Below, in pieces: positions 5,513-63,595 of a stretch of 64,000 bases of DNA. Every line of letters begins with the position of its first letter. The first letter of the stretch is position 1. Under the pieces are notes generated by a model, which made no database searches, was not told the origin of the DNA, and saw only the letters and a list, made by a program, of their open reading frames with translations. This stretch comes from Methanothermococcus sp. Ax23 (lineage in GTDB: Archaea > AGJL01 > Methanococci > Methanococcales > Methanococcaceae): positions 352,001 through 416,000 of the forward strand of contig NZ_CP157522.1 of assembly GCF_049075655.1 (NCBI RefSeq), in the 5' to 3' direction. Both the position numbers and the translations under genes were made by a program.

Positions 5513-5583
5513 ATCCGCAACTTTTGTTGCAGGCTATGAAAATCCTTCGGATTTTCATTTAATTAGTCGTTGGGCTAGGTCAA
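5513..5583 (+). repeat. Short hairpin mosaic ending in an IS200/IS605 right-end-like sequence
   Basis: Hairpins GCAAC-TTTT-GTTGC and ATGAAAATCC-TTC-GGATTTTCAT, then AATTAGTCGTTGGGCTAGGTCAA, homologous to 13241-13289. Confidence 0.65.
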
Positions 5584-10860: not shown

Positions 10861-11228
10861 CTGACCTACTCCAACGAGTGAACTCGTTGGGTTCTCGCTT
10901 ACGGTAGTAAGCGAGCAACGAAATCACGAAGTGATTTCGTCTAATTTTAGCAGGGTTTAACCCTACATGGGTGGCCAAGCCCACTACCCCTATCCCCGTT
11001 TAGGAGATTCAGGGCTACGCTGTATCACTAAGATTACTCTATCAAAACAAACCACGATACCAACCACTACCAGCGGTAGAGTTTTCACTAACCCTACCCA
11101 TTAGAACTTGGACTGGTAGCGTTACTTACTATTAATCTTCTCATATTTATATTTTACTACTTACTAGCCGATATAATGTCCGCCTCTCATCCAACGATTA
11201 AAATCGTTGGCTTTCTCGGCGGTTTATC
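10861..11228 (-). mobile_element. Non-autonomous IS200/IS605 MITE (PATE), copy A
   Basis: Near-identical to 12432-12806 and 63274-63595. On the minus strand it follows TTAC (11232-11229), has guide AAAG before the left-end hairpin CCAACGAT-TTTA-ATCGTTGG and GAAC before the right-end hairpin CCAACGAG-TTCA-CTCGTTGG, and ends in TCAG. No ORF. Confidence 0.85.
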
Positions 11229-12431: not shown

Positions 12432-12806
12432 CTGACCTACTCCAACGAGTGAACTCGTTGGGTTCTCGCTTACGGTAGTAAGCGAGCAACGAAATCACGA
12501 AGTGATTTCGTCTAATTTTAGTAGGGTTTAACCCTACAAGGGTGGCCAAGCCCACTACCCCTATCTCCGTTTAGGAGATTCAGGGCTACCTTTTGAACTT
12601 CCAACCACTACCAGCGGTAGAGTTTTCGATAACCCTACCCATAGATACTTGGACTGGTAGCGTTACTTACTACTAATCTTCACATATTTATATTTTACTA
12701 CTTACTAGCCGATATAATGTCCGCCTCTAATCCAATCTCATAAGAGATTTTACAAAACTATGTTTTGTATAACGATTAAAATCGTTGGCTTTCTCGGCGG
12801 TTTATC
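12432..12806 (-). mobile_element. Non-autonomous IS200/IS605 MITE, copy B
   Basis: Same ends as copy A (CTGACCTACTCCAACGAG...CGGCGGTTTATC|GTAA); has an extra 37-nt module at 12736-12772. Confidence 0.85.
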
Positions 12807-12989: not shown

Positions 12990-13289
12990 CGGCCATGTGG
13001 ATTTAACAAAAACCTACGGTTTTTATTACTGTCCTTCGCTATCGCTCGGACATCAGATAAAATTCCTTGGAATTTTATTACGTTCTTCACTACGTTCAGA
13101 AATCTCAAAACCTTCGGATTTTTTCGATTTACTCATTTCACTCATAAATTAGATGAAAACCTTCGGTTTTCATTACTTTCCTAGCTATCGCTCGGAAATG
13201 CTACAAAAACGAGGTTTGTTCAACCACGAGTGGCGAGTGAGCTACAAATTCCAAAGGAATTTGTTCAATTAGTCGTTGGAATAGGTCAG
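12990..13289 (+). repeat. Mosaic array of about 10 short palindromes (REP/BIME-like) ending in an IS605-like right end
   Basis: AT-rich perfect hairpins alternate with TCC/TTCT-(TTCGCTATCGCTC-like loop) hairpins; ends TTAGTCGTTGGAATAGGTCAG. Left boundary is uncertain. Confidence 0.7.
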
Positions 13290-13425
13290 TTATTTATATA
13301 TTGTTTATTTTCTAATTAACAACTGAAAATTTCATGATAAATAATATATATTATTTTATAAGTTTTATATAATACCACTTATTAATAGTATATTATATAT
13401 TCAAATATAAAAAGAGGGGGATATT

Positions 13426-19660: not shown

Positions 19661-20238
19661 AATCTTTTTAACTCTCTTTTTTATTTATCCAATCGAGCGA
19701 AGCTAGTATCGGATTTTCGAAATCCCCATGACTTTACGAAGTAATTTGTAAGATTTTTAAAGGTTTCGTTTGAATCTTCGCCTCACTACTTTTTATCTTT
19801 ATAGTATAATATTTATTAATTCAAATTAATAAATTTAATATATTAAAAATAATTAAAAAATAAAAAGAATAAATTATTTATTTTTATCTCCGCAGGTGCA
19901 TACAACATTTCCTTTTTTAAGTGGCGTGTGAGTTCCAAATACGATTGGTATTTCCAATTCTTTCATTAACTTCTCAGCTACTTCTTCAAAGTTTATATGC
20001 GGACATTCAGGAACTAAGAATGTGCAGTTTGCTATATGAACAGCTTCCGCACCGCTTGCGTTTTTAAGGAGTTTTACCCTCATTGGAAACCTTCTTCCAG
20101 GGCATCCGCCACATGTTGCAAATGCAACTAATTCAACATCTTTATATCTTTCAAATGTTCCGCTTTTTTCATTTATTGCCTTAAAACATGAAAAACATGC
20201 CTCTTTTCCAGGACATCCCATTTGAACCATTTTTTCAC

Positions 20239-21553
20239 GACTCATTAGGCAGGAAGCCCACGATTTCAATCGTTATACAAAACAATGTTTTGTAAAATCT
20301 CTTACGAGATGGGAGGAATGCCGTTTTTTAGCATACATCATACTTAAAACCACCAAAAACTTTTTATATATTGAATGATATACTCAATAGTATGGTGATA
20401 CCATGCTATTAACACTAAAATCTAAACTAATAACAACACCAGAACAAAAAACCACACTATTAAAAACAATGGAACGATTCAATTCAGCATGCAATTACAT
20501 ATCAAAAATAGCATTCAAAACCAAAACCTTTGGAAAAGTAAAACTACAAAAACTCGTATATTATGATGTAAGAGAAAAATACGGTTTATCATCTCAAATG
20601 GTGGTAAGAGCAATAGGAAAAGTATCAGAAAGTTATAAAACAGATAAAAAAACACTTCATAAATTCAAACCACACGGTGCAATAATATACGATGAAAGAA
20701 TACTAACAATCAAAACACCAGACACAATATCAATACTAACAATAAACGGTAGAATAAAACTACCAATCAAATTTGGAGATTATCTACCATTGGAAAATAA
20801 AAGAGTGAGAGGGCAGGCGGATTTAATCTACAAAAACGGTGAATTTTACCTAATGCTTGTTGTAGATATTCCAGAAGAGCCTCCAAACTCTTCATTTTCT
20901 AATGTGTTAGGTGTTGATTTAGGTATTGTTAATTTAGCAACTACGAGCGATGGAGTAAAATACTCGGGAGAAAAATGCACGAAAGTAAGAAAACGATACG
21001 AGAGATTAAGAGCAGAATTACAAAAGAAGAACACTTGGAGTGCTAAAAGAAAGCTTAAAAAAATAAGTGGTAGAGAAAGACGATTTAAACGGGATATAAA
21101 CCATTGTATTTCTAAACAAATCGTCATAACTGCCAAAGGCACGAACCGAGCGATTGCCTTAGAAGATTTGAAAGGCATTCGAAACGGTGGCACGGTTAAT
21201 AAGGCAGTTAAAAAACTTATTGACAGATGGGCATTCTATGAGTTAGCACAATTTATCCAGTATAAAGCAAAATTATACGGTGTTCCAGTATTCTTTGTTA
21301 ATCCACGATACACGAGCCAAACTTGCAGTAATTGCGGTCATGTGTCTAAAAATAACCGTAAAAGTCAGTCAGTATTCGTTTGTGAAAAATGTGGTTTTTC
21401 AGAGAATGCTGATGTTAATGCCGCTTTGAACATTGCCCACCGAGCAGAACAATACTATTTAGGGCTGTCCTGTCAGCCAGCCTAATGTCCTCCGCCCTAA
21501 TTATTAAGGGAGTTGGAAGGACAAGCCAACGGATTTATCCGTTGGTAGCTGAC
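20239..21553 (+). mobile_element. IS200/IS605-family (IS1341-type, tnpB-only) element
   Basis: Inserted after TCAC. Left-end guide GAAG plus hairpin; right end CAAG-CCAACGGA-TTTA-TCCGTTGG-TAGC-TGAC. No target duplication; removal restores the host ORF. Confidence 0.9.
20403..21485 (+). CDS. tnpB: RNA-guided endonuclease TnpB
   Basis: RuvC-I GVDLG, RuvC-II ALEDL, zinc finger TSQTCSNC...CEKC, RuvC-III NADVNAALNI; catalytic D-E-D intact. Confidence 0.95.
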   Translation: MLLTLKSKLITTPEQKTTLLKTMERFNSACNYISKIAFKTKTFGKVKLQKLVYYDVREKYGLSSQMVVRAIGKVSESYKTDKKTLHKFKPHGAIIYDERILTIKTPDTISILTINGRIKLPIKFGDYLPLENKRVRGQADLIYKNGEFYLMLVVDIPEEPPNSSFSNVLGVDLGIVNLATTSDGVKYSGEKCTKVRKRYERLRAELQKKNTWSAKRKLKKISGRERRFKRDINHCISKQIVITAKGTNRAIALEDLKGIRNGGTVNKAVKKLIDRWAFYELAQFIQYKAKLYGVPVFFVNPRYTSQTCSNCGHVSKNNRKSQSVFVCEKCGFSENADVNAALNIAHRAEQYYLGLSCQPA

Positions 21554-32972: not shown

Positions 32973-34319
32973 ATGAGGGATACTATGGATAAGGATAATA
33001 ATAAAAATATGGATTTAATGGACGAAACTATAAAAATATCATCAGATTTAATTAAAATAAATTCAGTTAATCCGGCATTTGGTGGATTGGGGGAAATGGA
33101 AAAGGCAGAATACGTATTAACTAAATTGAATGAGTATATACAAAAGTATAATATAAAAAATTATTCAATAAAGCAATACAATACAAAGGATGATAAGGAC
33201 ATAATACGACCAAATATTGTGGCAAAGTTCGATTTTGGAAAAGATAGAACACTCCATATAATTTCTCATCTTGATACTGTTCCAGAGGGAGATTTAAATC
33301 TTTGGAACACGAATCCTTATGAGCCAGTAATTAAGGATGGGATGATATATGGAAGAGGAAGCGAAGACAACCATAAAGCAATAGTTTCATCCCTGTTATT
33401 GTTAAAAATGATTTTTGAAGATGAAAATAAAGATAAAATTCCAAAATATAATTTGTGCCTAATATTTGTATCAGATGAAGAATGCGGCAGTAATTATGGT
33501 ATTCAACATATATTAAAACTTGACAAAAACCCAAAGGGCTTTTGTAAGTCAGCGAATCCGAAGGATTCGCTTCGATATGAAAAAGAGATTTTTGATGAAA
33601 ATGATTTAATAATAATCCCAGATTTTGGAACACCTGATGGAAATTATATAGAAATAGCAGAAAAAAATATACTATGGATTAAATTTAAAATTAAAGGAAA
33701 ACAATGTCATGGAAGCACACCAAACGATGGAATAAATACCGATGTTCTAATGTTCAATTTTGCAAATAACCTTTACAATATGCTCTATACTAAATACGAC
33801 AAAAAGGATGAGTTATTTTCTCCGTCATACTCAACCTTTGAGCCTACCATGATTTTTAACAATGTTGAAAATGTGAATACCATTCCGGGATATGTGGAAT
33901 TATGCTTTGATTGTAGAATACTCCCAGATTATGATGTCGATGAGGTTTTAAAAGATATTGATGAATTTATTGGTGATTTTAAAAATAATATTGATAAATA
34001 TTTAAAATACTACGATAAAGAGGAAGAGAAAAACATATCAATTGAATATGAAATCCTACAAAAGGAGCTCTCACAAAAAACACCTGAAAACTCTGAAATA
34101 GTTGTCGAGCTCGGGGATGCCATAAAAAAGGTATTAAACAAAGAACCGATTTTATGCGGTATGGGAGGAGGCACAGTTGGAGCATTTTTAAGGGCAAAAA
34201 ACTATGATACGGTTGTTTGGGGCATTGGTGAAGAAACTGCCCATCAACCAAATGAACATATAAAACTCGAAGATTTAATAAAGATGGCTAAAACATACTA
34301 CGAAATTTTAAAAGAATGA
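32973..34319 (+). CDS. M20 metallohydrolase (DapE-like) carrying a 19-aa palindrome-derived insertion
   Basis: SHLDTVP, GRGSEDN, SDEECGS, GKQCHGS, AHQPNE. Confidence 0.88.
   Translation: MRDTMDKDNNKNMDLMDETIKISSDLIKINSVNPAFGGLGEMEKAEYVLTKLNEYIQKYNIKNYSIKQYNTKDDKDIIRPNIVAKFDFGKDRTLHIISHLDTVPEGDLNLWNTNPYEPVIKDGMIYGRGSEDNHKAIVSSLLLLKMIFEDENKDKIPKYNLCLIFVSDEECGSNYGIQHILKLDKNPKGFCKSANPKDSLRYEKEIFDENDLIIIPDFGTPDGNYIEIAEKNILWIKFKIKGKQCHGSTPNDGINTDVLMFNFANNLYNMLYTKYDKKDELFSPSYSTFEPTMIFNNVENVNTIPGYVELCFDCRILPDYDVDEVLKDIDEFIGDFKNNIDKYLKYYDKEEEKNISIEYEILQKELSQKTPENSEIVVELGDAIKKVLNKEPILCGMGGGTVGAFLRAKNYDTVVWGIGEETAHQPNEHIKLEDLIKMAKTYYEILKE
33519..33575 (+). repeat. 57-nt double-hairpin element inserted in frame in the DapE-like gene
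   Basis: Nearly identical intergenic copy at 41577-41633. Confidence 0.85.
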
Positions 34320-35399: not shown

Positions 35400-36056
35400 T
35401 TATTTTTCTGCACATATAACAACAAAACTTCCTTCATCATCCTTTTCATTTAATTTAACGCGATTATATACTATATTTTTATATCCAAGTTCTTTCAGCC
35501 AGTTTAAAACTTCATTTAAAGAATAAAACGTTGCATCTTTATAGAATTTACTTTTTTCTTTTTTAGATTCATAAAATTTTCCCAGTGGGCTGTCTTTATC
35601 AATCGTGCCTATAATTAGTGTCCCGTTAGGTTTCAAAATTCTTTTTATCTCTTTGAGCCCTTTGATAGGGTCTTTTAAAAAACACAGTGTTGTGGTCATC
35701 AATACATAATCAAAGAATTCATCTTTAAATGGAATATCCTCTGCAACCCCTTCATATACATTTATTCCTCGCTTTTTTGCAATTTCTGCCATGGATTTCG
35801 AAGGTTCCAATCCATACTCAATACCCAGCGGTTCTGCAAACCTCCCAGTTCCCACCCCAATTTCTAGACCCTTCTTTTTTTCTTTGGGTTTTACAAATCT
35901 CTGATTTGTATAACCTGTTTTCCTTTTGGATTTTGGAATAAATTTCTTAACGGCGTCGAGCTCTAACTCATACATTTTCTTATTTTCATCATACCATTTA
36001 TCATATTCTTCTGCATATTCATCAAATGAAGTTTTGGAATGAGTTTTATCTGTCAT
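35400..36056 (-). CDS. Class I SAM-dependent methyltransferase
   Basis: LEIGVGTGRF, GVAEDIPF, RILKPNG. Confidence 0.88.
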   Translation of the reverse strand: MTDKTHSKTSFDEYAEEYDKWYDENKKMYELELDAVKKFIPKSKRKTGYTNQRFVKPKEKKKGLEIGVGTGRFAEPLGIEYGLEPSKSMAEIAKKRGINVYEGVAEDIPFKDEFFDYVLMTTTLCFLKDPIKGLKEIKRILKPNGTLIIGTIDKDSPLGKFYESKKEKSKFYKDATFYSLNEVLNWLKELGYKNIVYNRVKLNEKDDEGSFVVICAEK

Positions 36057-41555: not shown

Positions 41556-41576
41556 GATTTTTATTTTTTTATTTTA

Positions 41577-41633
41577 CTTGACAAAAACACTTCAAGTTTT
41601 TGTAAGTCAGCGAATCCGAAGGACTCGCTTCGA
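41577..41633 (+). repeat. Intergenic copy of the 57-nt double-hairpin element
   Basis: CTTGACAAAAAC...GTTTTTGTAAGTCAGCGAATCCGAAGGACTCGCTTCGA matches 33519-33575. Confidence 0.85.
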
Positions 41634-41657
41634 TATATTTATTTTTATTTTTTTCCA

Positions 41658-63273: not shown

Positions 63274-63595
63274 GATAAACCGCCGGGAAAGCCAACGACT
63301 TCAGTCGTTATACAAAACATAGTTTTGTAAAATCTCTTACGAGATTGGATGAGAGGCGGACATTATATCGGCTAGTAAGTAGTAAAATATAAATATGTGA
63401 AGATTAGTAGTAAGTAACGCTACCAGTCCAAGTATCTATGGGTAGGGTTAGTGAAAACTCTACCGCTGGTAGTGGTTGGAAGTGCATAGCGTAGCCCTGA
63501 ACCCATTAATGGGTAGGGATAGTGGGCTTGGCCACCCGTGTAGGGTTAAACCCTACTAAAAGAACCCAACGAGTTCACTCGTTGGAGTAGGTCAG
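63274..63595 (+). mobile_element. Non-autonomous IS200/IS605 MITE, copy C, inserted in the 3' end of thiI
   Basis: TTAC|GATAAACCGCCGGGAAAG-hairpin ... GAAC-hairpin-AGTAGGTCAG|; reverse complement of copies A and B. Confidence 0.88.

Follow-up and report, generated by a model that had tools for sequence, protein, structure and literature searches.

In the analysed DNA, a window of 64,000 nucleotides from Methanothermococcus sp. Ax23, a double hairpin of 37 nt interrupts the left-end (LE) hairpin of IS200/IS605-type elements that belong to two different families, and it does so at the same position in both. Comparison of the sequences points to a discrete unit that was gained at least twice at this position, and insertion of the module by its own means, on at least two occasions, is the best explanation that we can offer, with a probability of roughly 0.55. 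The module, TATACAAAAC-NNN-GTTTTGTAAAATCTCTTAYGAGAT, has three matches in the window with 0 mismatches in a pattern search, and the same pattern gave 0 matches in 100 of 100 shuffles. All three copies split the 3' arm of the LE hairpin directly after TCGT. This confirms an original prediction made from the window alone, whose coordinates were exact for the two copies on the plus strand (20274-20310 and 63309-63345) and off by one base for the minus-strand copy in MITE B (12735-12771). The features of the window on which the argument is built are as follows.

10861-11228, minus strand: MITE A, 368 nt, main-type IS200/IS605-derived, module absent
11191-11210, minus strand: empty site, intact LE hairpin CCAACGATTTTAATCGTTGG of MITE A
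12432-12806, minus strand: MITE B, 375 nt including the module, main family
12735-12771, minus strand: module in the LE hairpin of MITE B, loop 1 ATA, loop 2 TTAT
20239-21553, plus strand: type-2 TnpB-only IS200/IS605-like element, inserted after TCAC, right end (RE) ...CCAACGGATTTATCCGTTGGTAGCTGAC
20257-20273 and 20311-20313, plus strand: halves of the LE hairpin of this element, CCCACGA-TTTCAA-TCGT and GGG
20274-20310, plus strand: module in the LE hairpin of the type-2 tnpB element, loops AAT and TTAC
20403-21485, plus strand: tnpB gene, 360 aa, Pfam OrfB_IS605 and Cas12f1-like_TNB
63274-63595, plus strand: MITE C, 322 nt including the module, main family, without the 50-nt double-hairpin module described below
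63309-63345, plus strand: module in the LE hairpin of MITE C, loops ATA and TTAC

The module consists of two hairpins, the first a perfect 8-3-8 palindrome with an 8-bp stem and a 3-nt loop, the second with a 5-bp stem and a 4-nt loop. Folded alone as single-stranded DNA it reaches -7.7 kcal/mol (z = -6.0; none of 200 shuffles folded as well), and the filled LEs are predicted to form, as single strands, three hairpins in a row inside the outer stem. Its junctions bear a repeat of 1-2 nt (TCG-TT-ATAC...GAGA-TT-GG). Alignment of the three MITEs showed that MITE A is without exactly these 37 nt and has the hairpin CCAACGATTTTAATCGTTGG intact, as expected of the empty allele that it had been taken for; the type-2 tnpB element minus the module would read CCCACGATTTCAATCGTGGG. 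Searches of the window against Rfam (gathering threshold) and for tRNAs were both empty.

The hosts of the module belong to the IS200/IS605 family by the nature of their ends, with hairpins, a fixed tetranucleotide and an associated TnpB. They have subterminal hairpins at both ends, of the form CC[A/C]ACGA-N6-TCGT[T/G]GG in LE and RE, and show neither inverted terminal repeats nor target duplication. To the main family belong tnpB-bearing elements about 1.4-1.5 kb long and MITEs of 280-370 nt; their LE hairpin is preceded by AAAG and their RE hairpin by GAAC, and their terminus is ...AGTAGGTCAG. In the genome that holds the window (G000; 1.66 Mb, 32% G+C, plus a second contig of 7.7 kb), TTAC precedes 38 of 38 main-type LEs. 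MITE A follows this scheme, with TTAC flanking its LE and the RE terminus ...AGTAGGTCAG. The type-2 family, made up of the tnpB element of the window and MITEs, has GAAG before the hairpin and the terminus ...TAGCTGAC, and TCAC precedes every type-2 LE seen. Between the two families TnpB identity is about 34%; the TnpB of the window scores 91.9 bits for PF07282, which has 21 matches in the genome, and 44.2 bits for PF01385. The interior of the host MITEs is RNA-scaffold-like and common to the 3' end of the tnpB elements. MITE A carries in its interior an extra stretch of 30 nt (alignment columns 246-275) that is absent from MITE B and MITE C and present in three other 368-nt copies of the genome. 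The type-2 tnpB element (20239) has gone into a CGGC-domain gene (19874-20269, minus strand) right at its beginning; the longest ORF call of this gene reaches into the LE, and the true start codon lies probably further in. Inspection of the list of IS copies by eye revealed no apparent two-arm orientation pattern along the chromosome.

A list of all genomic copies with their junctions, as the original prediction had suggested, yielded 33 module copies at up to six substitutions, all of them in LEs and 0 elsewhere. Thirty-two of the 33 are exact matches to the pattern, and the remaining copy differs by one change in a stem. Among main-type LEs, 30/38 are filled and 8/38 empty (MITE A and seven others); all three type-2a LEs are filled, and in three type-2b MITEs, sisters of these, the hairpin is another one and intact (CCAACGG-TTTTAG-CCGTTGG). 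The count leaves out four weak matches to the 18-nt LE pattern (C1:514047, 681337, 1120927 and 75376; up to three substitutions, RE not found). The RE hairpins, some of which share stem and loop with the LE, contain the module in 0 of 46 cases (38 main, 8 type 2). A search of the genome at up to six substitutions for the module outside LEs, or for each of its hairpins alone, returned chance-like partials and one solo hairpin, and the palindrome of hairpin 1 has no further exact copy elsewhere in the genome. A solo hairpin similar to hairpin 1, TATACAAATC-AGA-GATTTGTA, was seen at 35888-35912 (minus strand) of the window, in frame within a 218-aa ORF (35400-36056, minus strand), where it encodes ..YTNQRFVK... 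Loop 1 of the genomic copies differs by host lineage (ATA, AAG, AAT, TAT), loop 2 is TTAC or TTAT, and all four combinations at the two variable loop sites are present.

At up to three mismatches the module has 0 matches in 40 related genomes, and exact-pattern scans gave 0 matches in public genome contigs (a scan from which its own genome was perhaps excluded) and 0 in viral contigs. Metagenomes yielded 35 contigs with the module, always in the same place, in 29 main-type and six type-2 ends; as the scan pattern held the stems fixed, these are silent on stem conservation. They add further hairpin variants (arms ACGG/CCGT; loops CTTTAG, CTTAG and TTGAAA) and further variants of loop 1 (AGG, AAA).

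The comparison between the two families indicates what kind of unit was moved. Between the hosts in the window the module has 2/37 mismatches and the 70 flanking bases have 34 (Fisher p = 3e-6), divided into 14/35 upstream and 20/35 downstream; the view that the hosts, with their different guides (AAAG and GAAG), have dissimilar interiors is thus sustained. The hairpin-proximal flanks taken by themselves are more alike (6/29 mismatches against 2/37 in the module; Fisher p = 0.12), so that short homology for templated copying does exist. The pair that borders the module is family-specific, A-T in the main family and C-G in type 2, and the filled type-2 hairpin keeps its own C-G. Empty alleles are known in both families: besides the eight main-type ends, a type-2 locus from a metagenome (L110) has the LE CCCACGA-CTTTAG-TCGTGGG, and the gap relative to the element of the window is exactly 37 nt. 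A further metagenome locus, L083, has an empty main-type end with the arms ACGG/CCGT, which occur also in the filled ends L090 and L111. In total five LE-pattern matches without the module were found in the metagenome, three of which are coding-like chance matches. The outgroups agree with this picture. Relatives of the type-2 TnpB in Methanolobus (56-62% identity) show the same LE layout with an uninterrupted hairpin, close relatives of this TnpB within the order were not found (best 35% identity), and the LE hairpin is uninterrupted as well in G024 and G032, in relatives of the main family that are complete with tnpA and tnpB. Since the C-G hairpin of type 2 is known in an empty form and the outgroups are uninterrupted, the module is not ancestral to both families. 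The likeness of LEs between the families is limited to the hairpin. This, together with the family-specific flanking pair and the uninterrupted outgroups, argues against a recently recombined common left end, the alternative raised with the original prediction. The moved unit is therefore the 37 nt with exact borders, in families with TnpB only about 34% identical and each with its own empty hairpin, rather than a block of main-type hairpin brought into type 2.

Within the main family the module was gained or lost recurrently. In a maximum-likelihood tree of 27 MITE cores, computed with the module removed, the label filled or empty needs at least four changes, and empty copies are nested among filled ones; the tree took 27 of the 38 elements, leaving out ten of at least 1.38 kb and the LE at C1:8389, which is without a right end. 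Sister pairs of an empty and a filled copy are nearly identical, with 0 mismatches over 338 nt, 1 over 251 nt and 2 over 368 nt. The empty copy C1:948335 has the family-specific markers of its filled sisters on both sides of the site, namely CCGGG and the loop CTTCAG upstream and ATATGAAG about 50 nt downstream. To judge from these sequences, the module was gained or lost at least four times within the main family. Polymorphism of filled and empty states at the same locus between strains was not found at the three shared loci, which are filled in both.

The nesting of empty copies in filled clades, and the greater frequency of filled ends, could also be read as a sign that the module is ancestral and was deleted in the empty copies. 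We regard this as highly improbable, given that the outgroups of both families are without the module, that none was found in 40 related genomes and that its removal restores a perfect hairpin matching the uninterrupted RE hairpins. The same low probability applies to an element acting at the RNA level, such as an archaeal bulge-helix-bulge intron, as the absence is in the DNA itself. The bulge-helix-bulge motif of archaea has two 3-nt bulges around a 4-bp helix formed by the 5' end of the intron and the downstream exon. RNA folds of both contexts gave three side-by-side hairpins and no helix between the 5' end of the module and the downstream sequence, and such an intron was rejected.

The module has travelled with its hosts. 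For 34 of the 35 metagenome contigs, the 150 nt upstream of the element (or the available length) were compared with G000. The flanks of 11 contigs are 98-100% identical to G000, and the corresponding places, seven sites that all end in TTAC, are element-free in G000; another three contigs correspond to sites where G000, too, has a filled element, and nine flanks had no match there. In addition, near-identical filled copies lie at different places within G000. Since module-bearing elements stand at at least seven sites that are empty in G000, the module hitch-hikes on its host. Of the two effects on the host that the original prediction had considered, immobilisation is contradicted by these seven sites, and hitchhiking is borne out by the same sites with their near-identical backgrounds; likewise, module-bearing copies kept transposing, as the near-identical filled copies at different places indicate. 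Empty ends also occur on apparently mobile copies. The Y1 transposase (PF01797) has 0 matches in G000, and Pfam detected no HUH protein on the 7.7-kb second contig, which had been considered as a source of such an enzyme. Within the order, 6 of 40 genomes have a Y1 transposase; the genes of G024, G032 and G015 are intact and 144 aa long. It is a separate observation that IS200/IS605-type ends are polymorphic relative to near-identical metagenome contigs although the Y1 gene was not found in G000.

The prevalence of filled ends raises the question of whether the module is a selected functional part of the LE that persists for its benefit to the IS, whatever its origin, for example a protein-binding palindrome or a structural spacer that aids end recognition or tnpB regulation. 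Filled ends are the majority (30/38) and the lineages that multiplied are filled; the stems are unchanged in 32/33 copies of G000, with four variants of loop 1 and two of loop 2; the module lies about 20-30 nt upstream of a TATA-like box preceding tnpB; and hairpin 1 is a perfect palindrome. We nevertheless consider a selected function unlikely. Apparently mobile copies have empty ends, and so has the only main-family tnpB with a full frame of 420 aa (C1:431571, minus strand). No other exact hairpin-1 palindrome exists in the genome, which also led us to reject the operator of a host regulon. Furthermore, the rest of the LE is about as conserved within the family, pointing to no special constraint on the module, and the metagenome copies, with stems fixed in the search pattern, are unusable for a statement on conservation.

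The search for related hairpin units led us to a repertoire that extends well beyond the ends of IS elements. Chaining of self-BLAST matches revealed further hairpin blocks of 45, 50, 56 and 94 nt that are present or absent in repeated elements. The block of 50 nt is a double hairpin with a TTAG leader, a TTC-loop hairpin and a second hairpin TCGCTT...AAGCGA, and it matches many related genomes as a free-standing element; in the window it precedes the RE hairpin in MITE A (10895-10944, minus strand) and MITE B (12466-12515, minus strand) and is absent from MITE C. A covariance model (R1) built from 18 distinct non-module copies of double hairpins, in the alignment of which 13 of 14 pairs show compensatory changes, detects copies in 25 of the 40 genomes examined from the order (threshold E <= 0.001) and describes a class of about 47 nt, to which the 50-nt block belongs. 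With 150 candidates scored per genome, the counts are lower bounds: at least 93 in G000, 88 in G013, 53 in G003, 52 in G017, 49 in G010 and 47 in G015. The module behaves like this order-wide class in being a block that is precisely present or absent. Its copies in the window, aligned at full length and in one orientation, score only 13.4, 11.2 and 10.6 bits with R1 (E 0.14-0.86), compared with 28-58 bits for true members, so that the module is at most a candidate member of the class. In G015 an R1-type block stands 7 nt after the LE hairpin of a full IS.

A second model (R2), built from the 37-nt module alone, recovered two 45-nt double hairpins in G000, with 34.3 and 33.1 bits (E about 1e-4):

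C1:1473620-1473664 (L137): R2 relative in G000
C1:1387523-1387567 (L136): R2 relative in G000

Both are in frame, in ORFs of 527 and 291 codons, and the copy at C1:1387523-1387567 is a 14-residue in-frame insertion relative to an 87%-identical ortholog in G003. A further relative is found in the congener G010 (C1:800237-800278; 32.2 bits, E 3.5e-4), so that R2 detects homologous units in unrelated contexts. Copies led by TAT are preceded by GT or AT (four in G000) or by TT (one in G010). Moreover, G010 contains units nearly identical to the two hairpins of the module in arrays, whose units differ in number and order between copies and which match R1 at 27-28 bits. Given the related units in ORFs and arrays, the module is not specific to hairpins by nature; it is, by these matches, a pair of units out of a genus-wide repertoire of small hairpin units at unrelated sites.

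The arrays of G010 lie within a repeated element (L115, L126-L130, L134, L135) and count 2-4 hairpin units, each about 20 nt long; copy L133 of the element is bounded by the inverted repeat TAGTTAATCTTCAATAACTGTCC.... Several further occurrences of such units were observed. At 12990-13290 (plus strand) of the window, an element of about 300 nt follows TTAC, has the right-end-like terminus ...GTCGTTGGAATAGGTCAG and consists almost wholly of 4-5 double-hairpin modules, with R1 matches at 13002-13050, 13053-13102, 13149-13197 and 13224-13268. A further single module lies at 5515-5562 (minus strand). Another double hairpin, of the type ACAAAAACCC..GGG.TTTTGT plus AGCGAATCC..GGATTCGCT, occurs at 33518-33578 and 41576-41636 in versions that are 87% alike, with more copies elsewhere in the genome. 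Double-hairpin modules are found also inside the tnpB frames of most main-family copies (C1:130889-130935 and six more copies; C1:1125815-1125862 and two more), and many such frames are shortened.

Taken as a whole, we propose that the 37-nt module is a discrete miniature insertion module from the genus's repertoire of hairpin units. It would have entered the 3' arm of the subterminal LE hairpin between TCG(T) and (T)GG, without target duplication, at a homologous position at least twice, once in the main family (TTAC, AAAG) and once in type 2 (TCAC, GAAG). The split hairpin would still be usable as a transposon end, transposition of the host would have carried the module to the 33 genomic places, and the module would now and then be gained or lost precisely. 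We infer that entry took place by a trans-acting mechanism of the module's own, preferring this structure or junction, rather than by repair copying, and that precise loss may be aided by the T/TT junction repeat together with the host stem that joins both junctions, through slippage. A mobility of its own is favoured by the exact borders in two hairpins, the family-specific flanking pair and the relatives at non-homologous sites.

The competing explanation that deserves most attention assumes a single original insertion of a module that is itself immobile, with spread and erasure by short-patch gene conversion or templated break repair, the passage from the main family to type 2 included; homologous hairpin arms would then serve as micro-homology in a polyploid archaeon. 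We hold it to be doubtful, a serious candidate all the same. Both families indeed have the left arm ACGAyTTyArTCGT and the right arm GG(A) in common, and in the long near-identical flanks of the main family conversion would be traceless. Copying, or recurrent mutation, would account for the presence of all four loop-variant combinations. Exchange of LEs between elements does occur: TnpB is 98% identical in L111 and in the region C1:946191 of G000, and the LEs of the two are quite different, that of L111 being main-type with the module and that at C1:946191 resembling the tnpA-bearing IS of G024, which implies that whole LEs have been exchanged. Against copying, the homology between the families on the right-hand side is only 2-3 nt, the next base is T in one and G in the other, and the loop 8 nt to the left differs; since the base after the module and the left loop differ, the transferred tract must end exactly at the module borders. 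In addition, the markers on both sides of the site in C1:948335 would limit any converting tract to less than about 60 nt, and the relatives inside ORFs stand at sites without any homology.

Of the claim that the module targets TnpA-binding hairpins, the same position in two families stands. The targeting itself is conjectural: only about two events between the families and at least four gains or losses within one of them are needed, which short-patch copying could give, the RE hairpins are free of the module (0/46), and the relatives lie in ORFs and arrays. As only two interfamily events are needed, a site preference rests on very few independent insertions. A more far-reaching form of the proposed own insertion would see the module and its relatives as micro-transposons, some 20-50 nt long, that a trans-acting enzyme (a visiting Y1 transposase or another activity) mobilises in the form of single-stranded hairpins, with the present lineage specialised on the 3' arm of the TnpA-binding LE hairpin as a seamless hyperparasite of IS200/IS605 whose host goes on transposing; we put this forward as speculative and rather improbable. 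A reading of the module itself as a miniature IS200/IS605 element was discarded, as its layout is unfit, with only 2 nt before hairpin 1 and two hairpins that are unlike each other.

A better knowledge of such units is of interest for the recognition of transposon ends. The insertion polymorphisms imply that transposition is still open to an LE split by 37 nt. If this is so, the transposase either needs only the loop-proximal 4-5 bp or tolerates a four-way junction, and either option is a directly testable statement on end recognition in IS200/IS605 (TnpA/TnpB) systems. The module offers a clean natural case of a tiny hairpin unit whose gain and loss respect exact borders, be it in IS ends, in ORFs or in hairpin arrays. 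Related double hairpins number from tens to about a hundred per genome across Methanococcales, where they add 14-15 residues to proteins and reshape the ends of TnpB elements and guide-RNA regions. We know of no mobilising enzyme for the double-hairpin modules of this order.

With respect to known systems, no report of a hairpin module inside the transposase-binding end hairpin of IS200/IS605 elements was found in the literature searched. Suyama, Lathe and Bork are said to have described in FEBS Letters in 2005 the palindromic repeats MJRE1-3 of Methanocaldococcus jannaschii, some of which reportedly lie in frame inside protein genes. By this description MJRE1-3 would resemble the 45-nt relatives and the class of about 47 nt as small hairpin repeats in frame in genes; insertion inside IS200/IS605 end hairpins is not known as a feature of MJRE elements. 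IS1397 and ISKpn1 are full IS that insert into REP hairpins, and here the size relation is reversed, a full IS entering a small hairpin. Small palindromic repeats of Methanococcales with coding potential, reported in 2005, are mentioned in PMC2229807. IStrons, group I introns in IS605/IS607, are comparable as selfish elements inside the structured end of another element; they are, however, reported to be large ribozymes that are removed at the RNA level (bioRxiv 10.1101/2023.11.20.567912). The REP, BIME and REPIN sequences with their RAYT (TnpA-REP) are like the module in being short hairpins with an unpaired leader by the stem, often paired and without target duplication, and their logic is related to that of IS200/IS605 end hairpins. 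They differ in their leader, GTAG or CGTC as against TAT or TTAG in the present units, and in having inverted rather than tandem hairpins. The TAT leader, the lack of PF01797 matches in G000 and the restriction of the module contexts to LEs set it apart from REP/REPIN-RAYT systems proper. MITE A, B and C for their part resemble PATEs and other IS200/IS605-derived MITEs in their subterminal hairpins, the lack of terminal inverted repeats and the TTAC on the left, a layout that is absent from the 37-nt module with its 2 nt before hairpin 1, its unlike hairpins and no room for guide and cleavage-site spacing. The REP/RAYT systems and the IS200/IS605-derived MITEs are the nearest of the kinds described so far.
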